This document shows positions 46,418 through 64,000 of a stretch of DNA of 64,000 bases, one piece after another. Source of the DNA: Escherichia phage EK010; sequence record NC_070981.1; one strand, given 5' to 3'. Position 1 is the stretch's first letter, and the number at the start of each line of letters is the position of its first letter. Under the pieces are notes generated by a model. That model was not told where the DNA came from and searched no databases. It saw only the letters and a list, made by a program, of their open reading frames with translations. The position numbers and the translations under genes were made by a program.

Positions 46418-46450
46418 AGAAGCCCCCTTCCTTTCGGTTGGGGGCTTTTC
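46418..46450. terminator. bidirectional terminator between convergent plus- and minus-strand gene blocks
   Basis: AGCCCCC/GGGGGCT stem with T-rich tracts on both strands. Confidence 0.65.
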
Positions 46451-46454
46451 TTGT

Positions 46455-49400
46455 TTACTCCTTAGCTCGAACTCTAACACGAAGTTTAGCTTGACGCTTA
46501 CTTCTCTCCAACTTGTCAGACAGAGAACCACGTTTGACTTTCAACTCTCCCTCGTCATTATACTTCTCCAAGAACTGTAAATACTCTTGTCGAGTAGTTG
46601 TCTTGTAAGAAGGAATCTTAGCATTAGGATTCGCTTCAATCACACGTCTAATCTTAGCTACATCATCCCTCCCTAAAAGTTTCCCTTTAGCTTGTTCTGC
46701 TGTAGAACCAAAGATTTTCTCAAGTGCTCGAGATTTGTTACCACCTGCCGAAGCAGCACCAAGTTTCGCAATAGCAGAATAATCATCAGCACTAAACCAA
46801 GCCACTGGATTATCTCCATAACGTTTCTTGTTCTCAGCAGCAGTCTGTAGAGCACGTACAAATCGACGGTTGTTACCAGCCTTATCTGCACCATGAACCC
46901 TATCTAGAACCTCTGCAACACTCGCCAACTCCTGCAAGTCTTTCCCTTCAATAAAAGCTTTCTCTGCTTTGTTAGCAAAGTCGTCTTCCTGCTTTTTAAT
47001 ACTTTCAAGAATATCAGAGTTAGCCTGAGATCTTTCATCCTCAGGTAGAGCGGAACGAATCTTCTCCATTTCTTTCTCTTCATCTAAAAGTTTCTTAAAG
47101 TCAGAATCAACTTTACGAGCATCTTCGATAGCTTTTGCTGTTTCTGCATCAAGGTCAGAAGCTTTCCCGTCTGCATCACCAGTTGCCTTAGCAATCTCTC
47201 TTTCGATTGGAGTAGCTGTTTCATACTTCTTAACAAACTTCTCTACGTCAGATTCGATACGAGCACGAGCATTCTGATGTTCCACTGGAGTCATAGGTTT
47301 CTCTAACAAAGCATACCGATTATCCATATAAGAACCAGCATACGCTTCAGCATCCTCCCTAGAAACCCCCTTCTCTTCCAGAGTGTTGACTAAACGCTTA
47401 TGAATGTCATCACGTTGACGTTGAACTGCCATTAGGTCATTCTCCCGTTCCTGAGCTTCTTTCAGAGCCTTATCTCTCTTCACTCTAGAATCAATATCAA
47501 ACCTACGGTTCATTTCCTCAGCCTGTTCATACATTCTATTCCACTTAGCCTCACGAGCATCTTCCTCTGCTTCGGTCAAACGTCGTTTGCGATCGAGGTA
47601 ATCACTCTCAGCGTTGTGAATACGTTCAATAATACTACGGAAACGCTCTGGTGGTACTGGAGAGTTTTTATCATGGTGAGCAGCAAGCTGTTTCAAAGTA
47701 CGACCTTCCTGAGCTTCTCTGACACTTTCAGGCAACTCTTTGAACATCTTCTCCATCTCGGATTTCTGAGCCGCTATAGCTTCCAAGGACTGCTTTTCAG
47801 CTTCCATAGCTGCCTTGGCATCATTACGAGCCTTAGCTCTGTTACGGAGCGTCTCAAGACGTTCTTGACGTGCTTGCAAGTGTTTAGCCGCTGCTTCGTA
47901 TTGAGAGTTCTTGTTAGCCTTGTTGAACATGTTAACTTCTCGGTTATAGGTATTGATAAACCCATCCCACACATCCTTCATTTGACCAACTTCCAAAGCC
48001 TCAACCCTTCCAGCTTTTTCTGAAGATTTAAACTTACTCTCCACAAAGTCTTCCATAATCCTACGCATAGCATCTTTCTGAGCAGGACGTAAAGGTTCTG
48101 CATCAAGCAGTGTACCAATTTCATCCTGAAGCTCTTTCTTCTGATCTACCAGTTTAGGAGCATCTTTCTTGTCAAAAGCTTTATTCTCTTCCAGAGCCTC
48201 TCGATAGAGACGGTCAAATTCATCATCTCTCTGTTTCTGATATAAACGCTCAGCTCTTCGTTTCAGTGAATCTAGGCTTGTGACGTTTCCACCCAAACCC
48301 TTCTCTTCAGCACGTAAAGCCTTAGTAGCAATATCAGAAGGCAATCCACGCTCTTTTACCCAATCAGCAAAAGAAGAACGAACATGTTGAGACTTAGCAG
48401 AAGCAATACCTTGCTGTGAAGCTAGCTGGTTTCTAGCCATCTCTTCATGACGCTGTGTGTTGTTTGCTTGGTCTTCCTGACGGATACGACGCATAAGCTC
48501 TTTAGGGTCTCCTTTATAAGAAAGGAAGTTTTCCGCAGTAGCTTTAGCTTTAGCAGCAGCCGAATACAAAGAACGAGCAAATCGGTCAGCACGATCTTTT
48601 GTTGCCTGACGGGCAGCAGTTGACATAGAAGCCAGACGCTCTACACCGAGTGATGGTTTAACAGGCTCAAGAGCCTTCTCAGGAGCTTTAGGCGCACGAG
48701 CAGGTAATGGCTCAGGTTTCTCTTGAGGTTCCTCTACGGTCTTCTCAGGAGCTTCTTTAGCACGTTCCGCTTCCTCTGCTTCTTGACGTTTCTTCGCTTC
48801 TGCTACAGCTCTGCGCTGAGCTACTAGCTCTCTTGCTGTAAGAGCTTCTTGCTGTGGTTCAGGTTCTGGTGTAGCACTTTCTTGAGCCTGAGCAGCTTCA
48901 GCTTCTTGACGTCTAAGCTCTGCTTGTTGGAGAGCACGTCTTTGAGCAACTAGATCCCTCGCAGTAAGAGGTGTTTCAGTTGGAGCTGGAGAGGAAGGAA
49001 TTTCTTCCGTCACAGTAGTAGCAGAAGGCTCCTCACGAACCGGTTCGGAAGGTGCATCATTTTGAGTACGGAATTTGATGTCTTCTGTGGTTGGTTCTTC
49101 TTCCATTTTTGCTCTTGCTTCTTCAGCCTGAGTCCTAGCTCGTTGTACTTCTAAATCAGCCCTAGCCAAAGAGCGGATAGCTTCGCTATTAGCTGACTGT
49201 TGCTTCTCACGTTGAGCACGAGCACGATCGGAAGTAAAGCGGTTAAGTACATACTTGGCTGCACCGAGAGGATTCTTAACTAACACAGGAGCCGGAGCTT
49301 CACGAAAACCGTCATCAGTCAGAGAGGTCCAACCACGGTCTTGGTTACTCATGAACTTAGCTGTATTATTCAGAGTGAAAGCATCTTGGATAGGGTTAAA

Positions 49401-50900
49401 ACCTTCAGGCATACCTTTTAGTTTCTTTAATCCACCAATGGCCTTCTTCATTTCTGGAGAAACATTTTCAGAGAGCTTCTGCAACTGAGTAGCTTTATCA
49501 ATGAAGTTGTTTAGGTCTTCACCATCACGAGCTTTGAAACGATTAGCTTCACTGTAAAAAGTTTTATAAGCATCAATAAAATCACGATCAGCTTGAGTAC
49601 GGTTTTTAATGTCAATAGCACTACCAGTAAAATCACCACTTGCTCTCAGAGCTACTAACTCTCGGTCTAGATTGTCTAGAACATCAGTAAGAGCTTTGGT
49701 GTTATCTTTAGTGTAGTCAGCCATTGCATCTTTCATTGCCACAGCTTGTTTCTGGTTGTACTCATTGTCAGCAAAAGCTTTACCTTGAGTCTTCTTAGGA
49801 GAAGCTAAAGGATTAAGACCGGGAACGTTAGAACTATCTTTCTGAACCGTAGCAGCCTTCTCTGCACGACTTTGATCTGTATTTAATATACGTTGAACAG
49901 CAGGAGAGTCCATAGCAACTGCATCTGTGATTCGGAAACCATTTTCATCCAGAAGGTTTAAAGCAGAGGCAGCATTAGCATTCTCAGCTTTAGCATAGGC
50001 TTCACGAAGTTCATCAGCGTTAGCAGCTTTACGAATAGCCTCATCTTCAGCAGCAATGTCAGTCTTAACATGCTCAGGAGTACGATCAAACACTTGAGGA
50101 CTAGGACGACTTATTAACCCATGAACCCCACCAATCGCCCCACCATAAGCGGCACCGAGTGCACCTTCTTCAATAGCCCCTTCTAAGACATTAGCTAGAG
50201 TAGTGTCATCCCCATATTTGTTCTGAGCTTCAGCAGCACCAACAATAGCACCACCCTTAGCACCAGCAACTGCGTTAGAGGCTACGCTTTGTCCTACACG
50301 ACCAAGAGTAGTAGAAGCTGTACCAGTCATGCCCGGAAGTATCTTCTGAGCAGCGTAGTTAGCACCACCAACAAGAGCAGCATCTAAGACTGACTTATCT
50401 TCATCTTCTTTAGGAGTTTGATCAGCATAAGCACGACCTGTTTCACGAGCTGCAATCACAGCAGCAGCAACAGCAGGGTTTGCAACTGTCAAACCAATAT
50501 CAGCAGCAACACCAGCATACTGACCAGCTGTTTTACCAAAACCATCTTCTATCTTGGATAAGCGTTCTTCCAGCAATTGCTTAGAGTTCTCTTGAATGCG
50601 CTTACCGTAGCTTGTTTCCGAACCAGTTAGATTTTCACCAATCTCTACCAGCCCACCTAAACCTTTAGCAGCACTAGCTGCAATGTTAGCACCACCTGAT
50701 TGAAGAGCGTTAGACACACCTTGAGCAAACTCCCCAATAGCACCTCGTTCTTCTTGTTGTGGTTGCTCTTGTGGTTGAGTCTCAGGAATAGTGCCCCCTG
50801 CTGCCTTGTATTGTTCTCTCATTTGAGCCTGTTGCTCTGGAGAGGCATTCAGATACGCAGGAGCTTTGGAAGCTTCTTCCCACGATTTTAAATTAGCCAT
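46455..50900 (-). CDS. large internal virion / ejection-type protein (1481 aa)
   Basis: Track ORF; Gly/Ala-rich hydrophobic N-terminal region, long coiled-coil-like region, internal repeat LTAR(D/E)LVAQRRA. Confidence 0.6.
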   Translation of the reverse strand: MANLKSWEEASKAPAYLNASPEQQAQMREQYKAAGGTIPETQPQEQPQQEERGAIGEFAQGVSNALQSGGANIAASAAKGLGGLVEIGENLTGSETSYGKRIQENSKQLLEERLSKIEDGFGKTAGQYAGVAADIGLTVANPAVAAAVIAARETGRAYADQTPKEDEDKSVLDAALVGGANYAAQKILPGMTGTASTTLGRVGQSVASNAVAGAKGGAIVGAAEAQNKYGDDTTLANVLEGAIEEGALGAAYGGAIGGVHGLISRPSPQVFDRTPEHVKTDIAAEDEAIRKAANADELREAYAKAENANAASALNLLDENGFRITDAVAMDSPAVQRILNTDQSRAEKAATVQKDSSNVPGLNPLASPKKTQGKAFADNEYNQKQAVAMKDAMADYTKDNTKALTDVLDNLDRELVALRASGDFTGSAIDIKNRTQADRDFIDAYKTFYSEANRFKARDGEDLNNFIDKATQLQKLSENVSPEMKKAIGGLKKLKGMPEGFNPIQDAFTLNNTAKFMSNQDRGWTSLTDDGFREAPAPVLVKNPLGAAKYVLNRFTSDRARAQREKQQSANSEAIRSLARADLEVQRARTQAEEARAKMEEEPTTEDIKFRTQNDAPSEPVREEPSATTVTEEIPSSPAPTETPLTARDLVAQRRALQQAELRRQEAEAAQAQESATPEPEPQQEALTARELVAQRRAVAEAKKRQEAEEAERAKEAPEKTVEEPQEKPEPLPARAPKAPEKALEPVKPSLGVERLASMSTAARQATKDRADRFARSLYSAAAKAKATAENFLSYKGDPKELMRRIRQEDQANNTQRHEEMARNQLASQQGIASAKSQHVRSSFADWVKERGLPSDIATKALRAEEKGLGGNVTSLDSLKRRAERLYQKQRDDEFDRLYREALEENKAFDKKDAPKLVDQKKELQDEIGTLLDAEPLRPAQKDAMRRIMEDFVESKFKSSEKAGRVEALEVGQMKDVWDGFINTYNREVNMFNKANKNSQYEAAAKHLQARQERLETLRNRAKARNDAKAAMEAEKQSLEAIAAQKSEMEKMFKELPESVREAQEGRTLKQLAAHHDKNSPVPPERFRSIIERIHNAESDYLDRKRRLTEAEEDAREAKWNRMYEQAEEMNRRFDIDSRVKRDKALKEAQERENDLMAVQRQRDDIHKRLVNTLEEKGVSREDAEAYAGSYMDNRYALLEKPMTPVEHQNARARIESDVEKFVKKYETATPIEREIAKATGDADGKASDLDAETAKAIEDARKVDSDFKKLLDEEKEMEKIRSALPEDERSQANSDILESIKKQEDDFANKAEKAFIEGKDLQELASVAEVLDRVHGADKAGNNRRFVRALQTAAENKKRYGDNPVAWFSADDYSAIAKLGAASAGGNKSRALEKIFGSTAEQAKGKLLGRDDVAKIRRVIEANPNAKIPSYKTTTRQEYLQFLEKYNDEGELKVKRGSLSDKLERSKRQAKLRVRVRAKE

Positions 50901-50936
50901 AACGTCTCCTTATAAATAAAAATGTCCTACCTCCTA

Positions 50937-50945
50937 TATACATTA
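50937..50945 (-). promoter_or_regulatory. TAATGTATA motif, candidate phage-sigma promoter element
   Basis: Exact 9-mer on minus strand 37 nt upstream of start codon at 50900. Confidence 0.4.
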
Positions 50946-50970
50946 TAAGAGATAGGACTTAGGTCTTAGA

Positions 50971-52638
50971 TTACTGTAACATCCAACTCGTGTCCGCTGG
51001 AGCAGAAGAAAGAGCGCCTGTTAATCGAGGATTTGTAGCATCTCCACCAACAGCTGCTTCAGCTTCACTCTCAAACGTACCGAATGGGTCATAGAAACCA
51101 GCAGAAGGAATAGCACGGTTGACAAGAGCTGTCGCTCGTTTCTTATCCATACCAGAACCGATATATGCCTCAATTGTTGCTTTCTTAGCATCCTTCACAC
51201 CTTTCTCAGCAGAAGTAGCACCAACAGTTGCCTGCTTACGAGCATATGACAGAGCAGCATCAGAAGGACGATAACCTGCTTTAAGGGACCATGTATTACC
51301 CAACTTAACAAAGATGGACGGGTCTTCTGCAAAGTGGGCTAAGTCATCAGCTTGGAGAGAACGGTTAGCACCGATTTCTGCCCTTGCGGAGTTCATGATA
51401 GCCTGCATGTAAGCAGAACGAGCAGTTTGGTAATCCTTATCCTTAACAGCTTTGTCTGCTAAATCCAAGTCCTTATGAGACTGGTTGAACAGACCTGCTT
51501 TCTCTGCCCACTGCTTAGCAACTGTACCTTCTGCTGTGTTCTGAGCAAGACGAACTTCTTTCGGATTGAAAGTAAAGCTCTGAGCAGCTTTCTCTGCACG
51601 ATCTGCTTTAACTTGATCACGATATCCAATAAGTTCTTTCTGTTTCTCGAACTGAGCATTAGCACGTTCTTCAGCAGCACGACGAGTTTCAGCAGCACGT
51701 TCCCGCATCGAATTCTCTTGAATCTGTTGACGTCTATCCCACTCACGATTGGCACGTTCTTCATCCTGAGCAGCAAGAGCCATTTTCTCCTGAGGACTCA
51801 TCTGACGCATCTTGAGAAGAGAAGGATCTCCCGAAGCAATTGCAGCAGCAACTGAATCTTGAGAGTAGCCTTGTTCTAACAGAGCATCACGGTTGGCTTC
51901 TAGTTGTTGTTTAGTTTCATCCTGAGCAGCTAAGCCAGAACCAATCTGGAAAGCTTCAATAGGGGATTTACCTGACATGATAGAAAGACCAACACCCATT
52001 AAGCCAGTATAGAAACTAGACTTCTGGTAGAATGGTTGCTTCTGAAGCTCATTCCAAGCTTGTGCTGGATCTTTAGCTTTAGCTACTTCCATAATATCAT
52101 TATTAATACGTTCTTGGTCTTTAGCACGAGTTGCACCAGCCATACCTTCAGGAGCTGGATTACTATTAGCTAGAGTGTTAATAACATTCTGAGCCTGTTC
52201 CACTTGAACTGGAGAGAACTCTTTATCTGTTTCTTCCAAAGGTTTACGAGGAGGAGTAACAGGAAGTGGGTCACTAGGCATCAATCCAGCAGCTTGTAGA
52301 CCTTCATCAGAGGATAGATCTGGGTTATTTATAGCAGGAGCTGGTTCGCCAATATCAATACCCTGAAGGCTTGTAGGAGTCCCTTGATTCTCTGCTTCCA
52401 TAAGGCGCTGTCTAAATCCCGGATTTAACATAGCTTCTTGGTCCTCTTGAGCAGTAGCAACAAGAGAGGATAAACCTACAGGAGAAGCAGGAGGTCTCCG
52501 GTTATACATAGAAACATCAGCAGCTGGGTAAGTAGGTCTTGCCATGTATGGAGAGGCCGAAGCGGCCCCTTGTTTAACACCATAGATCTGATTTCTTGGG
52601 TCTTGACTGCGAAGATACGCATAAGAAGTTTGTTGCAT
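50971..52638 (-). CDS. virion-associated protein (555 aa)
   Basis: Track ORF in structural block; AATTAGGAG SD upstream. Confidence 0.6.
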   Translation of the reverse strand: MQQTSYAYLRSQDPRNQIYGVKQGAASASPYMARPTYPAADVSMYNRRPPASPVGLSSLVATAQEDQEAMLNPGFRQRLMEAENQGTPTSLQGIDIGEPAPAINNPDLSSDEGLQAAGLMPSDPLPVTPPRKPLEETDKEFSPVQVEQAQNVINTLANSNPAPEGMAGATRAKDQERINNDIMEVAKAKDPAQAWNELQKQPFYQKSSFYTGLMGVGLSIMSGKSPIEAFQIGSGLAAQDETKQQLEANRDALLEQGYSQDSVAAAIASGDPSLLKMRQMSPQEKMALAAQDEERANREWDRRQQIQENSMRERAAETRRAAEERANAQFEKQKELIGYRDQVKADRAEKAAQSFTFNPKEVRLAQNTAEGTVAKQWAEKAGLFNQSHKDLDLADKAVKDKDYQTARSAYMQAIMNSARAEIGANRSLQADDLAHFAEDPSIFVKLGNTWSLKAGYRPSDAALSYARKQATVGATSAEKGVKDAKKATIEAYIGSGMDKKRATALVNRAIPSAGFYDPFGTFESEAEAAVGGDATNPRLTGALSSAPADTSWMLQ

Positions 52639-52652
52639 AATTATTCTCCTAA

Positions 52653-53621
52653 TTAAGAGCTAGCTAAGCCACCGATAACACCGCCAGCTAAAGCGCCCCA
52701 AGGGCCAAAAGCTGAACCAGCAGCAGCACCACTCGCAGCACCACCTAGGAAGCCTCCACTACCACCAGATGTTTTAGTAGTTGTGGTTGTCCCTAAAGCT
52801 CCATTAAGAACCCCGGCAGCACCTAGTTGATTGTTAATATCCTGCCAACCCCAATTAGCAGCATTCTGAGCATTCTCATAAGCATTGTTCAAATCAGACT
52901 GCTGTTGTTGCTGCTGTTGCAGTCCTGCATTCCACTGATTCATCATTTGCTGTTGTGATAGCTGACCAGCTTGGTTTCCTAGATTAGCAAGGTTGGAGCC
53001 AATGTTAGATAAACCACCCAAAGCAGATGCTTGTGTTTGTCTATTACCAGAAAGAATGTTCTGTGCTTGAGTTAGAGCGGAGTCATAAGCACTATTAGTA
53101 ATATTAGTTGCTGTGTTCTGCATCTGGTTCAGAGCATCACCCTGAGCAAAAGATTTAGCCATACGTGCACCAGAACCTTGCTGACCAGCAAACTGCTGAG
53201 AGATTTGAGGAAGTGCATTCCTAGCCAAACTCTGTTGGGTTTGTTCATTATTCGCTGCAATAGCTGCTTGCACAGCCTCGTCGTCATAGAGCTGGCCTGC
53301 AAGAGCACCAATCTGTTCTCCAGTGATTTGACCAGAGTTTGAAAGGTTATTGTATCCAGAGTATGCATTATCTAGATAACCTAAGCCAGATTGAGCAGCA
53401 TCCATATACTGAGAAGAAAGTGCACCTAATGCACCAGATTGTGATAGATTGTTCAGAGCCTCTTGCTGGTTTTGATTAAGTCCAACATTTTCTCGATACA
53501 CATAATCGCCTGAACTAGTGTTATTAACCTGATTGACCAACTGATCAATATAGGATTGAATGTAGTCAGGTCTTGTCATTTTAGAAGTAGTCTTGCTACT
53601 CCCACCACCAAATAAAGCCAT
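52653..53621 (-). CDS. Q/N/G-rich virion protein
   Basis: Track ORF; N-terminus MALFGGGS paralogous to next gene. Confidence 0.6.
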   Translation of the reverse strand: MALFGGGSSKTTSKMTRPDYIQSYIDQLVNQVNNTSSGDYVYRENVGLNQNQQEALNNLSQSGALGALSSQYMDAAQSGLGYLDNAYSGYNNLSNSGQITGEQIGALAGQLYDDEAVQAAIAANNEQTQQSLARNALPQISQQFAGQQGSGARMAKSFAQGDALNQMQNTATNITNSAYDSALTQAQNILSGNRQTQASALGGLSNIGSNLANLGNQAGQLSQQQMMNQWNAGLQQQQQQQSDLNNAYENAQNAANWGWQDINNQLGAAGVLNGALGTTTTTKTSGGSGGFLGGAASGAAAGSAFGPWGALAGGVIGGLASS

Positions 53622-53630
53622 AGCTCCTCC

Positions 53631-54683
53631 TTAATTTGCTCCAAAGGCTCCTAGAACACCACCTAAGATATTACTCCCTGCGGTAGATAACCAGTTGCTC
53701 TGACTATTCTGTTGAGACAGGTTTGAGCCACCAATCATAGGACCAGCCATCCCAGCTTGACCTCCAGAAGCATTGTACGAATTCCAAGCATTAGTAGTTT
53801 GCTGGTTAGGGGTAAAAGCACCTAGACGACCAGCAATACCAAGACCAGTAATCCCAGCACCAAGGATTTGTTGTGAAGTATTAGGGGCAGCACCTTTATT
53901 AGTAATAGTGTACCCAGCCATTGGACTTACTGAGTTTAATACATTAAGCTGATTGTTAAGCCGATTCCAACCATACTGCTGACTGCCAATAGTATTCTCC
54001 CAATTGTTGTTAGCTTGGAGTTGATCTTGCTGCTGTTGAAGGTTTCCAGCAGTGAGCTGATTCTGTATTGCTTGTTGACCAGCTTGTACTCCAGCAGCAC
54101 CTAGATTCAAGTTCTGACCTGCTAGACCAGATTGAGCATTTAGCAAACCTTGCTGATAAGAGCTGTTATTCAGAAGATTACTAACACCCATATTTTTACC
54201 CTGAATAGAGCGAGAGAGGTTAGTATTCGCTGAAGAAAGAGCAGCACCTTGGGCAGCAGCACGTCTCAGAGAACCTGAGTCAGATCCATTGCCAAGGGAT
54301 ACATTAGCAGCAGCTTTACCTGTAGACTTAGCTAGTGCAGAATTATTCAATCCAGAACTAAAGTTATTAACATCCTGAGCAGAGATACCACCTTTATTAA
54401 CTAGGTTTTGGTATTTCTGAGCCAACTCATTCATCTGGTCTAGCCCTTGTTGAGTTCGAGGAGTATACATCTGACTAAATTGGTTAAGTGTATTAGAGTT
54501 TGCTAAATTAGAAAGAGCTGCCGTTTGGCCTTCATTGAAGCCCGCTATATTACGACTGATGAACCCTTGGTCATTTTGATTCATAGCTTGGGCATTGGCT
54601 ACAATCTGTTTCAGAAGAGCATCAACCTGAGAAGACGGAGCTACCGTAGTCTTAGATTTAGGAGCAGAACCGAAAAGAGACAT
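53631..54683 (-). CDS. Q/N/G-rich virion protein (paralog)
   Basis: Track ORF; N-terminus MSLFGSAP. Confidence 0.6.
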   Translation of the reverse strand: MSLFGSAPKSKTTVAPSSQVDALLKQIVANAQAMNQNDQGFISRNIAGFNEGQTAALSNLANSNTLNQFSQMYTPRTQQGLDQMNELAQKYQNLVNKGGISAQDVNNFSSGLNNSALAKSTGKAAANVSLGNGSDSGSLRRAAAQGAALSSANTNLSRSIQGKNMGVSNLLNNSSYQQGLLNAQSGLAGQNLNLGAAGVQAGQQAIQNQLTAGNLQQQQDQLQANNNWENTIGSQQYGWNRLNNQLNVLNSVSPMAGYTITNKGAAPNTSQQILGAGITGLGIAGRLGAFTPNQQTTNAWNSYNASGGQAGMAGPMIGGSNLSQQNSQSNWLSTAGSNILGGVLGAFGAN

Positions 54684-54692
54684 ATGTCCTCC

Positions 54693-55490
54693 TTATCTGT
54701 AAATGTCAGTGCCTATGCTAGACAGACGTCTAAGCACGGCTTGTGTTTGTGGACTATATCGAGAACCTGCCTGAGTGGGAGCATGTGCTCTTTGCACAGT
54801 TTGAGAGTTAGGTTGCTTTCCTGCAAGCATAGAGGCAGCTGCCAATACAGCATTACCAAAATTCTGTTGAGGTTTTTGATCCTCTCCGGAAGATTGTTCG
54901 TCAGAGTAAAACTCTACAGGACTACCACCTAAAGCTCCAGCCTTACTTGCAGCTATCTCTGCCTGAGTTGGAGCATTAGCAGCTCCTTCTTTAGTAAGTG
55001 TGTTAGAGCCGAATTGGTCTACAGGTTGTGCTGCTTTCAAAGCACCGACAGGGTTAGCCACTTGAGATGCTGCTGTATTCTTATCAAAGAATGGTAAGAA
55101 TAACTTGTTGTTCATAGAATCTAAAGCTTGAGGAGTAAACCCACGCTTACCAGAGAACATCTGTTTTGCACCACCAGTCCCTTCTGAATATCCCACCAAA
55201 GCTTTCCTCACATCACCATCAAAAGCTTTTAGGTTGTCTCTCAAATACCTAGCACCCATATCAATATTCTTTGCAGGGTCTAATCTATCTTCTAGTTTGT
55301 AACCATAATCTTTAGCCAACCCTTTACTGATTTGCATTAAACCTACTGGCCCTGTACCTGATGCAACAGAGGGTCTACCACTAGACTCCCTCTGGATAAC
55401 TGCATGGATAAGAGCAGCAGGAATGCCGTACTTCTTAGAAGCTTGCTGGACCATAGGATCTAGCTCAGACACTCCCATTCTTATTGTCAT
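54693..55490 (-). CDS. lytic transglycosylase (SLT domain)
   Basis: HAVIQRESSGRPSVASGTGPVGLMQI motif. Confidence 0.8.
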   Translation of the reverse strand: MTIRMGVSELDPMVQQASKKYGIPAALIHAVIQRESSGRPSVASGTGPVGLMQISKGLAKDYGYKLEDRLDPAKNIDMGARYLRDNLKAFDGDVRKALVGYSEGTGGAKQMFSGKRGFTPQALDSMNNKLFLPFFDKNTAASQVANPVGALKAAQPVDQFGSNTLTKEGAANAPTQAEIAASKAGALGGSPVEFYSDEQSSGEDQKPQQNFGNAVLAAASMLAGKQPNSQTVQRAHAPTQAGSRYSPQTQAVLRRLSSIGTDIYR

Positions 55491-55502: not shown

Positions 55503-56537
55503 TTATATACTTGCAAAAATTTTAGTTGCATCTAATACAGGAACGGAGATCCCTATAGTTGAGTTAGAGCCTAGGTCGTAGGAGTTATCCCACTGGAACA
55601 TATACCTCCCATACCCTGTACCAAAAGAAGAACCATTCATAGTGTGTGACCTAGCATGTTGGAAATACCAACCACTACCATTACCTCGGATAGCACCTAC
55701 ACCAGAAGATAAAGGTATCATTGGGTATGAGATTCCTGTATTCCCACCACTATAAGGCATAAAATTGTGAATCATCATTGGTGTTCTGTAAGTAGAGAAT
55801 ACACACTGAGAACCGTTAGGAGAATAAATGTTCAGTCCACCGTTGTGAGTAGGAACACTGCCACCATCACAGAACACTGCAACCCTAACTGTTCCGATGT
55901 TACCACCTGCGTTGTTGTTTCCGTTGTTGTAAGATCTGTTTTGATATACCCGAATAGTTCTATCACCAGCTGTGTATAGAAGACCTGCACCACTGTTTGA
56001 CCAATTGGCAAATACCATGTATCTGTTAGAATCAAACCCACTAATCGCAGGTATCTGCATAGAACCGTTGATTGTGCCCTCCCAAGCATAAATACACTGA
56101 CCAACCGTACCACTATCAGAGATAGAGAAGTAGTCAGCTGTGTTTGAAAAAGTAATACCGTAGTTTCTGTTAGCTCTAGGCCAAATCTGGTATACGTTAA
56201 ATCCACAGTCAAACAGAGGGTTACTTCCGGGGTTCTGGTTGATGCTGACCCTGAAGGTAGAGTTATTGATTACAGAAATTCCAGTGACACAATAAACATC
56301 AGGAATTAAGTTAGGAGGAACTTCCCATTGCCAGCACAAACTGCCAATCGGAGCAATAACAATTTGACCTGAACCGTCCCATCCCGATATAGGGAAATCT
56401 CTGCTTCCTCCATTGAAGTTGTAGTTACCACTCACTCTATTCTTGAATTGAGGGAAAGTTGAACCACTATCAATAAAAAGTTCAGAAGGAGTTGCTGGTC
56501 CCGGCCCTACTGGTTTAGTCCAAATTCCATATGCCAT
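55503..56537 (-). CDS. tail-associated protein (344 aa)
   Basis: Track ORF in structural block; Gly/Asn/Ser-rich. Confidence 0.55.
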   Translation of the reverse strand: MAYGIWTKPVGPGPATPSELFIDSGSTFPQFKNRVSGNYNFNGGSRDFPISGWDGSGQIVIAPIGSLCWQWEVPPNLIPDVYCVTGISVINNSTFRVSINQNPGSNPLFDCGFNVYQIWPRANRNYGITFSNTADYFSISDSGTVGQCIYAWEGTINGSMQIPAISGFDSNRYMVFANWSNSGAGLLYTAGDRTIRVYQNRSYNNGNNNAGGNIGTVRVAVFCDGGSVPTHNGGLNIYSPNGSQCVFSTYRTPMMIHNFMPYSGGNTGISYPMIPLSSGVGAIRGNGSGWYFQHARSHTMNGSSFGTGYGRYMFQWDNSYDLGSNSTIGISVPVLDATKIFASI

Positions 56538-62260: not shown

Positions 62261-64000
62261 TCACTTCTCTGCTAACTTCGCTTCTAGAACTTCAATACGC
62301 TTCAGCAGATCTTGAACAACCTGCATGGTATCTAAAAGCATTGGAGTTGCATCCAACTCTTTCTGTTCCTGCTCTACCCCATCGTTGTCATGGAATTTAC
62401 GAGTTTTAACATAAAGAGGTTCAACTTTCTCTGCCTGCTGTGCAATGATACCACGACGAGTTCTTCCTTGATTATCATTGTTGTACACAAACGATTTGAA
62501 ATCCAAACCTTTTATCGCACGAATTGCTTCATCAGGAGAGATATCTTGGATGTTATGTTTCAACCTTTCATCAGATACAGGATTCATAGCAAGAGTATAA
62601 GTTCCAGCGGAGCCGGGCTGCCATGTGTAATAGAAAATCTCATTTCTGTTTGGTCGAAGGGTTAAACGACACCCGAATTGGTTATTTTCATCACCAGAGA
62701 CATGCCAACAGGAATCAGCAAAAGATCCAGCATCATTGTGAATCATCCCTACATGGGTAGTAGTTTTGTATCCACCTTGAGATGCTTGGGAAGCACTCAG
62801 TATAGAGTTAAAAGAGTAGTTAGCACCAATCCCTTGGTTATCTATAGAAAACGTCCCTCTGCGAATTCCTGTTTCGTTCCAAGACATCAATGTTCTAGAC
62901 CGAGCAGCATACCTATCAGAGTTCAGGGTTCCAGAATCGTCAAAAGCTAATTGCTTGGTAACACCTTTGGTTTTATTATAAACACCAATAATCCCATAAT
63001 AAACTCCGTCGATATAAGCATCAGTTTGGAGCGTAGTAGAAGCCTCTACTTCTGAACCAATTTTATATTCAGCAACAACAGAACCACTAGTTACTCGAGT
63101 TCCACCAGCAGGACGGTTTGCATCACTATTAATAACTGACCAAGAAGTGTTAGCTGCTACAAAAGCACCTTTAGCTCTGATAACCCAAACGCCGATGAAT
63201 GAATTTGTTCTAACCTCAGAAACGTCGTCCTTACCGTAGACCGGACTTGAGCGCGATGCGTCGAGCCTGAATGAGATATACCTAGTCCCAGCTTCGGGGG
63301 TTGTTAGATTTAGCACCCCTTGAGCAACTGGTGTAGGGAAGTAAACGGCCCCTCCTTGTTGCGCATTGTTGTAGGCATAAGATTGCCACTGACCAGTTAT
63401 ATTTGGCGCGGCGGCCTCGTGGATCTTTCTGGTGAAATCTCCTGACCCACGACCATATAGACCCTTTATACTTCCCGGTTGAACACCATTCTTATCAGGA
63501 ACTCGGAATGTGGTAGAGCCATCGCCTAGTGAATATTGAGACCTTTTCAGAGGATCTGCCAGCCAATCAGCATCAGAGATAGGTGTTATCATTTGCGCGT
63601 ATGCCCAAAGCTCTGGATAATCTGTACGAGAAAGAAGTTGACCATCTGACGGGATATCATTAGATGGGATATAAGCTCTACTGTCAATTAAACGGAAATC
63701 ACCAATGTTGAAATTGGAGATACCATTCATTGTAGGGCCACCAGAACCTCCACCACTGTTACGAAGCTGCCTTAGTGTAACTGCATCATAGTCACCTACA
63801 GCATCTGCTACAGTAACCGGTTGCTGAAAGGTAACTTTCTCGGTAAATTGTTTGATATCAGAGTTGATACCAGTTCGAGTTACACCAATGGTGCGTCCTT
63901 TGGAATCTTTTACATAGGAACCGATTGAAGCGAAAGGTAAATCCTCGATCTCAGGACGATAACGTTTAGAGTAAATAGGATACTTGGTTTCTATACCACC
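62261..64000 (-). CDS. tail fibre with collar domain and C-terminal S74 intramolecular chaperone; 5' end beyond window
   Basis: SDERLKHNIQDI chaperone motif, DGQLLSRTDYPELWAYA collar motif; hand translation upstream of the track Met (63730) stays open to 64000 and contains VTVADAVGDYDAVTLRQL. Confidence 0.7.
   Translation of the reverse strand, partial: GGIETKYPIYSKRYRPEIEDLPFASIGSYVKDSKGRTIGVTRTGINSDIKQFTEKVTFQQPVTVADAVGDYDAVTLRQLRNSGGGSGGPTMNGISNFNIGDFRLIDSRAYIPSNDIPSDGQLLSRTDYPELWAYAQMITPISDADWLADPLKRSQYSLGDGSTTFRVPDKNGVQPGSIKGLYGRGSGDFTRKIHEAAAPNITGQWQSYAYNNAQQGGAVYFPTPVAQGVLNLTTPEAGTRYISFRLDASRSSPVYGKDDVSEVRTNSFIGVWVIRAKGAFVAANTSWSVINSDANRPAGGTRVTSGSVVAEYKIGSEVEASTTLQTDAYIDGVYYGIIGVYNKTKGVTKQLAFDDSGTLNSDRYAARSRTLMSWNETGIRRGTFSIDNQGIGANYSFNSILSASQASQGGYKTTTHVGMIHNDAGSFADSCWHVSGDENNQFGCRLTLRPNRNEIFYYTWQPGSAGTYTLAMNPVSDERLKHNIQDISPDEAIRAIKGLDFKSFVYNNDNQGRTRRGIIAQQAEKVEPLYVKTRKFHDNDGVEQEQKELDATPMLLDTMQVVQDLLKRIEVLEAKLAEK

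Follow-up and report, generated by a model that had tools for sequence, protein, structure and literature searches.

The last five late genes of Escherichia phage EK010 as a probable ejection-protein module of the SU10 type

What do the proteins whose genes close the late operon of Escherichia phage EK010 contribute to infection, and do they act as a set? The 64,000-nt stretch analysed here (NC_070981.1; the window) carries, at 46455-55490 on the minus strand, five late genes with products of 265, 350, 322, 555 and 1481 aa. The initial annotation had described four of them as an ejectosome-like internal virion protein set. Their open reading frames are present on the minus strand at the positions given here, but the gene for the 555-aa product, which lies inside the same interval, had been left undescribed:

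54693..55490, minus strand: predicted 265-aa virion-associated lytic transglycosylase, orthologue of SU10 gp20 (Pfam, PHROG, BLASTP)
53631..54683, minus strand: likely 350-aa Q/N/G/A-rich ejection protein (MSLFGS...), orthologue of SU10 gp21 (PHROG, BLASTP)
52653..53621, minus strand: likely 322-aa Q/N/G/A-rich ejection protein (MALFGG...), orthologue of SU10 gp22, the 'DNA injection protein' (PHROG, BLASTP)
50971..52638, minus strand: likely 555-aa ejection protein, orthologue of SU10 gp23 (PHROG, BLASTP)
46455..50900, minus strand: likely 1481-aa giant ejection protein, orthologue of SU10 gp24 (PHROG, BLASTP)

Over the block, nucleotide identity is 100% to Escherichia phage E20-1 and 96.6% to SU7 (Suseptimavirus). 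PHROG families match the five proteins end to end, and all five have syntenic full-length orthologues in SU10 (Kuravirus), at BLASTP identities of 75-82% and with nearly the same lengths (260/350/322/551/1473 aa in SU10 versus 265/350/322/555/1481 aa here). Orthologues are also found in phiEco32, SU7, YF01 and Bas86. Farther away, at 29-45% identity, the cassette order of SLT protein, two paralogues, mid-size protein and giant protein is kept in contigs from Enterobacter and E. coli, in which it adjoins capsid and portal genes of the SU10 type. An element in the E. coli assembly GCA_023211535.1 (contig DAHCAP010000002.1, about 204-225 kb) may be an integrated prophage. A tail-fibre-chaperone-like C-terminal extension considered in two distant homologues (P0047 and P0048) had no Pfam support and was dropped.

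The initial annotation had named absence from purified virions as the observation that would count against it. In the close relative SU10, mass spectrometry of purified virions found all five orthologues, gp20-24 (PMC4281155 Table 2). Genome-release intermediates of SU10 lack gp20-24 as well as the tail needle, and it was because of the absence of gp20-24 from these intermediates that the SU10 authors labelled them 'ejection proteins' (PMC9509320). The same work names gp20 as a transglycosylase, finds that gp19 is not a virion protein and resolves none of gp20-24 by cryo-EM (PMC9509320); the ejection-protein reading was also adopted for phage YF01 (PMC9965538). Orthology and synteny with these virion proteins, which are lost at genome release, bear out the proposed ejectosome-like set, and the block is very probably the ejection-protein (internal virion protein) module of the Gordonclarkvirinae, whose five late proteins would be packaged with the DNA and expelled via the tail. 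Expulsion would follow formation of the tail nozzle and loss of the tail needle. No observation speaks against this assignment.

The virion and ejection data come from SU10 alone. The ejection-protein reading is already known through the SU10 experiments; it is an ordinary finding that leaves current understanding unchanged, and the main thing confirmed is that an ejection-protein module can be recognised by reading the sequence alone. The roles suggested below for the individual proteins are tentative, drawn by analogy with T7 and P22 and from the order of the genes and the size and composition of their products.

In the 265-aa protein, aa 13-115 (nt 55146-55454) match the SLT domain PF01464 in Pfam with E 8e-25 and 87.1 bits, far above the curated cut-off of 21.3 bits, in agreement with the SLT domain first claimed for it. 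The protein also matches phrog_12507 (transglycosylase) and shares 82% amino acid identity with SU10 gp20. The domain aligns with aa 10-113 of T7 gp16 at 36% identity (E 7e-15), and this alignment places Glu35 (QRESSG; motif QRES) opposite T7 gp16 Glu37 (WTESRF), which is reported to be the catalytic residue (Moak and Molineux 2000). Sequence matches in the PDB were to T7 gp16 and MltC/EmtA, and the C-terminal 150 aa gave no domain match. In Pfam searches, none of the other four proteins of the block has an SLT domain; the proposal that the peptidoglycan hydrolase sits on a polypeptide of its own therefore holds. By its sequence, the 265-aa protein is a virion-associated lytic transglycosylase, predicted to be muralytic, that would cut peptidoglycan locally.

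The two proteins that follow were correctly recognised as related. BLASTP aligns about 280 aa of the 350- and 322-aa products with 30% identity (E 1e-11), and comparison of their sequences identifies them as true, ancient paralogues. Both match phrog_4287, 'DNA ejection protein' (E 8e-102 for the 350-aa and 4e-99 for the 322-aa protein), and Q and N together make up 24.5% and 26% of the pair. Identity to the SU10 orthologues is 78% for the 350-aa protein with gp21 and 82% for the 322-aa protein with gp22, and in the Enterobacter contig L004 the 350-aa protein has an orthologue of its own, 333 aa long and 41% identical. The uncharged, Gly-rich hydrophobic segments of the 350-aa protein lie at aa 273-291 and 331-349, without a PWGA core. 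The 322-aa protein ends in a candidate glycine zipper, aa 284-322 (nt 52656-52772; GGFLGGAASGAAAGSAFGPWGALAGGVIGGLASS), which contains PWGA; 56 homologues were found, and the family alignment shows this C-terminus as its best-conserved part. Distant homologues gave sub-threshold Pfam matches to Gly-zipper families.

The C-terminus is also where the family meets P22 gp7. Comparison by hhalign gave 30-31 low-complexity columns at 61-63% identity with a probability of 42-56%, against 0.6% for a reversed control. The profile of gp7 relatives from IMG/VR covers sequences of 86-100% identity, with almost no diversity, and the gp7 match is confined to the C-terminus. For the body of the 322-aa family, BLASTP against P22 gp7 and T7 gp14 was not significant, and the hhalign probability with T7 gp14 was 0.08%. 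An AlphaFold2 model of the 322-aa protein from a 33-sequence alignment was all-helical at pLDDT 45, too poor for a fold search. For these two nearly uncharged paralogues, the role may be membrane insertion, with the outer membrane as the most likely target and a hetero-oligomer as a possible form.

In the 555-aa protein, the N-terminal third is rich in Pro and the centre is charged and looks helical; there is no hydrophobic segment, the hydropathy maximum being 0.85. The protein matches phrog_12130 (unknown function) with E 0, is 75% identical to SU10 gp23 and has a 490-aa counterpart at the same position in L004 (34% identity). Pfam gave no match, and phmmer against the PDB returned nothing at E below 0.6, gp15-type proteins included. 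By analogy, it may be the builder of a periplasmic tube.

The last product, the giant protein, matches phrog_14629 with E 0 and is 81% identical to SU10 gp24. A word-indexed search returned only close relatives among its top results (the best 120 of 152 matches are all at least 80% identical), and an exhaustive search of 1.84 billion proteins found only 14 clusters at 50% identity. It has no match in Pfam or the PDB, nor to T7 gp16 or P22 gp16 by sequence, profile or fold, and its fold matches in BFVD are only to the prolate podophages EP335, Vp_R1 and 7-11. The following regions can be distinguished:

50106-50738, minus strand: conserved Gly/Ala-rich N-terminal region, aa ~55-265 (family alignment)
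49326-50093, minus strand: confidently predicted all-alpha domain, aa 270-525 (AlphaFold2)
48591-49103, minus strand: Pro/Glu-rich variable linker, aa ~600-770
48933..48968, minus strand: motif copy 1, aa 645-656, LTARDLVAQRRA, conserved in SU10 gp24
48807..48842, minus strand: motif copy 2, aa 687-698, LTARELVAQRRA, degenerate in SU10 and phiEco32 (PLPARNPLEERRA)

The composition of the protein is as the initial annotation had it. Gly and Ala make up 29-34% of the N-terminal 300 aa, where aa 131-149 form the sole 19-mer that reaches a classical transmembrane value (Kyte-Doolittle 1.71; others about 1.0), and charged residues make up 29-47% from aa 400 on. The charged C-terminal half ends in a basic tail, KLRVRVRAKE, that is conserved across the family. 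The AlphaFold2 model of aa 1-620 is all-alpha, with pLDDT 75-95 over aa 270-525. The linker is the most diverged part relative to SU10 gp24, at 63% identity. On this layout, the conserved Gly/Ala-rich region would anchor the protein in the inner membrane or cross it, the linker would extend across the periplasm, and the basic tail may touch DNA, a contact also proposed for T7 gp16.

The LTAR(D/E)LVAQRRA motif, first reported as a tandem near-duplicate, sits inside the linker. The duplication is real, as the best 14-mer self-match of the giant protein is 11/14 and that of 100 shuffles at most 9/14, but it is not strictly tandem, the two copies lying 42 aa apart. Their 14-codon cores share only 29 of 42 nucleotides; the duplication is therefore old and has been kept at the peptide level. 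Copy number ranges from one (SU10, phiEco32) through two (here and in P0058) and three (P0177) to four (P0178). The 14-mer TATAATGTATATAG proved non-specific and useless as a probe for viral contigs. The peptide has been kept while synonymous sites diverged, and one to four copies occur in a spacer of variable length. The motif might be a functional short helical module, and not a relic, that tunes the periplasmic reach of the giant protein or its binding to DNA, the nozzle or a component of the host envelope; we regard this as a quite doubtful proposal. If it were true, the giant protein would be a TonB/TolA-like trans-envelope element of adjustable length, peculiar to prolate podophages like SU10.

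A related reading takes the giant protein not as an inner-membrane channel former lining the DNA path but as a TonB/TolA-like strut or ruler that spans the periplasm and braces or extends the nozzle, with an N-terminal glycine-zipper anchor, a Pro/Glu-rich spacer of varying length and a long charged helical rod as its parts. Several features are in line with it: Pro accounts for 10-11 of every 100 residues in the linker (aa 600-770), which also has EP/KP-type runs (EPEKTVEEPQEKPEPLPARAPKAPEKALEPVKP), linker length and motif copy number vary strongly among homologues, orthologues have been deposited as 'TolA protein', and in SU10 the ejection proteins have been proposed to lengthen the nozzle (PMC9509320). 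The similarity to TonB and TolA is nevertheless one of composition only, and neither family is matched in Pfam. We consider a strut rather unlikely; it would in any case be compatible with the ejection-module explanation and not exclusive of it.

Two further readings would replace that explanation, and the SU10 data weigh heavily on both. A core or scaffold inside the head, organising DNA packaging and retained in the capsid, would fit the presence of the SU10 orthologues in the head, where they are not resolved in the maps (PMC9509320), and the GenBank annotation of one protein as 'internal (core) protein'. It is very improbable, however, because gp20-24 are missing from the SU10 genome-release intermediates, which refutes it for SU10; the family moreover has a separate scaffolding protein (SU10 gp8), and an SLT enzyme would be without a role inside the capsid. 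Just as improbable is a mere late-operon neighbourhood, with the SLT protein as lysis endolysin and the Q/N-rich proteins as tail or adhesin parts: the genes do come directly after tail genes in the late operon, and PHROG matches of the SLT domain include 'endolysin' and 'lytic tail fiber' families, but a separate pair of holin and endolysin is annotated elsewhere in the late operon (Bas86, SU7, SU10), the atomic tail of SU10 consists of gp6, 11, 12, 13, 16, 17 and 18 without gp20-24 (PMC9509320), and SU10 gp20-24 exit the particle with the DNA.

The ejection-protein module, the preferred reading, also has predicted transcription signals before and after the giant gene:

50924..50958, minus strand: conserved 15-bp hairpin before the giant gene, dG -21.2 kcal/mol, z -2.8
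50937-50945, minus strand: phage-sigma late-promoter motif, TAATGTATA, spanning the hairpin loop and the adjoining stem pairs
46420..46447, no strand assigned: predicted bidirectional terminator, GC-rich hairpin AAGCCCCC...GGGGGCTT; both strands carry T-runs

The first hairpin lies in a 70-nt gap, the one gap of any size within the block, and is followed by a U-rich tract. It was found in 10 phages, with pairing kept at all five of the five variable stem positions. The promoter motif inside it occurs four times in the window, against 0.58 copies expected. Both the identity of this motif and a promoter between CDS 23 and 24 of SU10 have been reported (PMC4281155), and the SU7 record has an annotated promoter at the site equivalent to the hairpin. 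The hairpin is probably a terminator or attenuator for upstream read-through, combined with a separate promoter for the giant gene. The giant gene would then have its own phage-sigma late promoter within a hairpin able to stop read-through from upstream; transcript 3' ends in this region would map to the U-tract, and a new 5' end would appear 6-8 nt downstream of TAATGTATATA. The second hairpin starts 7 nt past the stop codon of the giant gene, and a terminator-like match was found there on the plus strand. At the equivalent site, the SU7 record has terminators annotated on both strands and the SU10 record on one. As judged from its sequence, this hairpin serves as a bidirectional terminator where the late (minus strand) and middle (plus strand) gene blocks converge.

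The question for the field is how the five SU10-type ejection proteins assemble beyond the nozzle. For mutagenesis or multimer modelling, the block adds several handles, namely the free-standing SLT protein, the old paralogue pair, the glycine zipper, the variable-copy motif, and the promoter with its hairpin.

Ejection proteins have been placed in a common framework of outer-membrane, tunnel and inner-membrane proteins, among which the hydrolase domain moves between polypeptides (PMC8954989). T7 has gp14 in the outer membrane, gp15 as the periplasmic tunnel and gp16 in the inner membrane, the last with an N-terminal lytic transglycosylase. As in T7, the internal virion genes of EK010 close the structural operon in order of increasing size, the SLT domain shares homology with the N-terminal part of gp16, the presumed catalytic Glu being aligned, and the last protein is very large, with Gly/Ala-rich, weakly hydrophobic segments and a basic tail (...LRERRK in T7). 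Unlike in T7, there are five proteins and not three, and the hydrolase is a free-standing 265-aa protein that is not fused to the giant one. The likeness to T7 gp14-16 put forward in the initial annotation is thus sound for function and architecture but does not extend to homology of the four non-SLT proteins: the 350-, 322-, 555- and 1481-aa products have no detectable similarity to T7 gp14, gp15 or gp16 (for the 555-aa protein, by phmmer and Pfam only), and the 322-aa and giant family alignments gave negative results in profile comparisons with gp14 and gp16 of T7 and gp20 and gp16 of P22.

In P22, the set has no virion SLT protein, and P22 gp20 and gp16 have no matches here. P22 gp7 is a single-copy protein of 229 aa, in contrast to the paralogues of 322 and 350 aa, and belongs to a different PHROG family (598 versus 4287 here). 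It is similar in composition, with 18% Q+N, 31% G+A and 10.5% charged residues against 25%, 25-28% and 7-8% in the paralogues, and it ends in a glycine zipper with the PWGA core also seen in the candidate zipper of the 322-aa protein. SU10 lacks the ordered core stack that T7 has on its portal (PMC9509320); in this the module resembles P22, in which the proteins are dispersed in the head without an ordered core. From SU10 itself, EK010 differs in genus and in the second motif copy, which is intact here and degenerate in SU10 and phiEco32. The two phages have in common that the five genes are the last of the late operon, placed after those for the tail needle and gp19 and ending at a terminator, with a promoter motif between the fourth and the fifth.

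The block at 46455-55490 (minus strand) comprises five tightly packed late genes, with spacers of 9, 9, 14 and 70 nt in the order listed.

Genes of the block
54693-55490, minus strand: ORF of the SLT protein, 265 aa
53631-54683, minus strand: ORF of the first Q/N-rich paralogue, 350 aa
52653-53621, minus strand: ORF of the second Q/N-rich paralogue, 322 aa
50971-52638, minus strand: ORF of the mid-size protein, 555 aa
46455-50900, minus strand: ORF of the giant protein, 1481 aa

The five proteins have full-length orthologues, encoded in the same order, in phage SU10 (KM044272): gp20 (260 aa), gp21 (350 aa), gp22 (322 aa), gp23 (551 aa) and gp24 (1473 aa), with 82, 78, 82, 75 and 81% identity, respectively (BLASTP). 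The nozzle, tail needle and gp19 upstream of the block are likewise orthologous to those of SU10. Mass spectrometry of purified SU10 particles identified all of gp20-24, gp24 with 116 peptides and 73% coverage (PMC4281155). A cryo-EM study found gp20-24 and the tail needle gp18 in virions and not in genome-release intermediates, and its authors concluded that gp20-24 are five ejection proteins, of which gp20 is the transglycosylase; none of the five is resolved in the maps (PMC9509320). The same reading was taken up for phage YF01 in a later comparative paper (PMC9965538). The initial annotation had proposed an ejectosome-like block, a proposal to be abandoned if the proteins were absent from virions; in SU10, where this experiment has in effect been run, they are present and are lost on genome release, which supports the proposal. 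The block is a real feature, correctly interpreted and already established by experiment in a close relative, and we are highly confident that it is an ejection-protein module. Its earlier description is borne out by the ORFs, repeat, composition, paralogy and SLT domain, the sole omission being the 555-aa gene, which is a member of the block.

Two neighbouring late genes were also noted. Between the tail-needle gene and the block, 55503-56537 (minus strand) encodes a 344-aa DUF6453 protein (PF20051; PHROG 'membrane protein', moron category). Its SU10 orthologue, gp19 (70% identity), was undetected in virions and is not a virion protein (PMC9509320); a non-structural gene therefore sits inside the structural operon. 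Outside the block, the 489-aa late protein at 62261-63730 (minus strand), whose C-terminus (...RRGIIAQQAEKVEPLYVK...) is typical of tail-fibre/spike chaperone domains, is probably the distal long-tail-fibre protein.

The window phage belongs to the prolate (C3) podophages, kin of phiEco32 and SU10. By megablast, 46455-55490 has a 100% identical, full-length match in Escherichia phage E20-1 (OP293233.1), and the block is 94-97% identical to SU7, Bas86, Bas87, PAS59, NC-B and IME267 and about 81% identical to ECBP2 and Bas88; the 97 records matched all come from phages of Escherichia or Shigella. SU7 is classified in its database record as Gordonclarkvirinae, Suseptimavirus. This phage group is known from lytic isolates. 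Two distant contigs carry the cassette in the same order (SLT, paralogue, paralogue, mid-size, giant) at 29-45% identity, adjoining genes for an SU10-type capsid (PF17236) and portal (PF23899): L004, a 59.9-kb contig of SRR24679947, one of whose proteins is named Enterobacter cloacae by NCBI, and L214, contig DAHCAP010000002.1 (389.6 kb) of the E. coli assembly GCA_023211535.1, with the cassette at 204-225 kb. SU10-type terminase genes also lie beside these cassettes. Finding the cassette well inside a large bacterial contig hints that the phage group has relatives that are integrated or resident in some other form.

The GC skew of the window changes sign at ~46 kb: plus-strand replication and middle genes lie to the left, and minus-strand late structural genes run from 46455 to the window end. 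Two hairpins flank the giant gene.

Hairpins flanking the giant gene
50924-50958, minus strand: hairpin with promoter motif, 15-bp stem, -21.2 kcal/mol, z -2.8, followed by AUUUUUAUUU (U-tract)
46420-46447, both strands: GC-rich hairpin AAGCCCCC...GGGGGCTT, T-runs on both strands, 7 nt past the giant stop codon

The second separates the plus-strand from the minus-strand gene block where the two converge; its equivalent in the SU7 record is annotated as a bidirectional terminator, and it likely ends both transcription units. The first lies in the 70-nt spacer that precedes the giant gene and contains TAATGTATATA (50935-50945, minus strand). According to the SU10 genome paper (PMC4281155), the motif tAATGTATAtA marks promoters of the phage sigma factor, phiEco32 gp36, and a late promoter of this kind separates CDS 23 from CDS 24. 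TAATGTATA occurs four times in the window (0.58 expected) and here covers the loop and adjoining stem pairs; none of the other three copies (33955+, 40731-, 40802+) lies in such a hairpin. The element has 92% conservation per column among ten related phages, and 5/5 variable stem positions carry one-sided changes that keep pairing through G-U, a pattern that is suggestive, with few haplotypes only. The element may combine a terminator/attenuator with a promoter. If the transcription start, as in phiEco32, lay 6-8 nt past the motif, the promoter's own transcripts would lack the 5' arm, so that the hairpin would affect only upstream read-through.

The giant protein is rare: queried exhaustively by HMMER with aa 1-1200, 1.84 billion cluster representatives yielded only 14 clusters. 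Five regions are seen in their alignment.

Regions of the giant protein family
Region 1, N-terminal: conserved, with Gly/Ala-rich motifs ...DIGxTVAxPxVAxAxIAARETGRAYADQ..., NAVAGAKGGAxVGAAEA and GAAFGGAIGG
Region 2, aa 270-525: all-alpha domain predicted by AlphaFold2 (pLDDT 75-95)
Region 3: Pro/Glu-rich linker of very variable length
Region 4: charged C-terminal half
Region 5: basic C-terminal tail, in all members

The Gly/Ala-rich hydrophobic N-terminus and long charged region of the initial annotation were recovered: residues 1-300 are 29-34% Gly+Ala, with aa 131-149 the sole clearly hydrophobic 19-mer (Kyte-Doolittle 1.71), and 29-47% of residues are charged from residue 400 on. Its tandem repeat is a genuine near-duplicate, LTARDLVAQRRA at aa 645-656 and LTARELVAQRRA at aa 687-698 (best 14-residue self-match, 11 identities versus ≤9 in 100 shuffles), and is not strictly tandem, since the copies are 42 aa apart. 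At the nucleotide level the 14-codon cores match at only 29/42 positions, which points to a putative old duplication maintained by peptide-level selection. Both copies are in the linker, the least conserved stretch relative to SU10 (63% identity). With a relaxed pattern, SU10 and phiEco32 have one copy, the window phage and homologue P0058 two, and homologues P0177 and P0178 three and four, and none was found in the most distant homologues; members of the family differ in how many copies of this short helical motif they carry. The linkers of P0177 and P0178 are up to about 270 aa longer (a P0178 copy reads PRGISAQELADIGRRVRES).

The 350- and 322-aa proteins are true paralogues (30% identity, E 1e-11, BLASTP). 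Both match phrog_4287 'DNA ejection protein' and contain about 25% Q+N, 25-28% G+A and 7-8% charged residues. Each has its own orthologue in the Enterobacter cloacae-derived L004 (41% and 45% identity), so the duplication is old and neither copy was lost, consistent with separate roles or a hetero-oligomer. The AlphaFold2 model of the 322-aa protein is all-helical, with a pLDDT of just 45. The best-conserved part of the family (33 aligned members) is a C-terminal glycine zipper, LGGAMSGAAAGSAFGPWGALAGGVIGG. In two distant 322-aa homologues, P0047 (391 aa) and P0048 (423 aa), an ~80-100-aa extension past the zipper (...GVLAQEVAK...VDY) resembles the terminal part of intramolecular chaperone domains of tail fibres and has no Pfam match.

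The analysis of the window itself establishes that the proteins are orthologues, that the active-site motif of the SLT domain is intact and that the cassette is conserved, as well as the composition of the proteins; the SU10 orthologues are packaged in the head and exit with the DNA (PMC4281155, PMC9509320). A tentative division of labour, doubtful in its individual roles, would have the SLT protein open the murein. The nearly uncharged paralogues, one with the C-terminal glycine zipper (322 aa) and the other with Gly-rich hydrophobic segments (350 aa), would enter a membrane, for which the analogy with gp7 and gp14 makes the outer one the most likely. The 555-aa protein, which has no hydrophobic segment, might form a periplasmic tube, and the giant could anchor in or cross the inner membrane via its N-terminal Gly/Ala-rich region, its proline-rich linker spanning the periplasm.

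P22 gp7 is also Q/N- and G/A-rich. In profile comparison only the zipper segment aligns, with the gp7 C-terminus (ASGAIAGAGLAKLIGSSTPWGAAIGGGIGLLGS; 61-63% identity, probability 42-56%, reversed-sequence control 0.6%), the protein bodies fail to align and the PHROG families differ; this is therefore resemblance rather than membership. The 265-aa protein carries an SLT domain (PF01464, E 8e-25, Pfam). Its residues 8-106 align with T7 gp16 residues 10-113 (36% identity, E 7e-15), pairing Glu35 (QRES) with Glu37 (TES), and its PDB sequence matches are a phage tape-measure SLT domain, T7 gp16, MltC and EmtA. No Pfam domain was found in the 350-, 322-, 555- and 1481-aa proteins, and the hydrolase is thus a separate polypeptide, as first proposed, whereas in T7 the domain is part of gp16. 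A review of ejection proteins records this domain as moving between gp15- and gp16-like proteins of different phages (PMC8954989), and the free-standing SLT protein is one more variant of this mosaicism.
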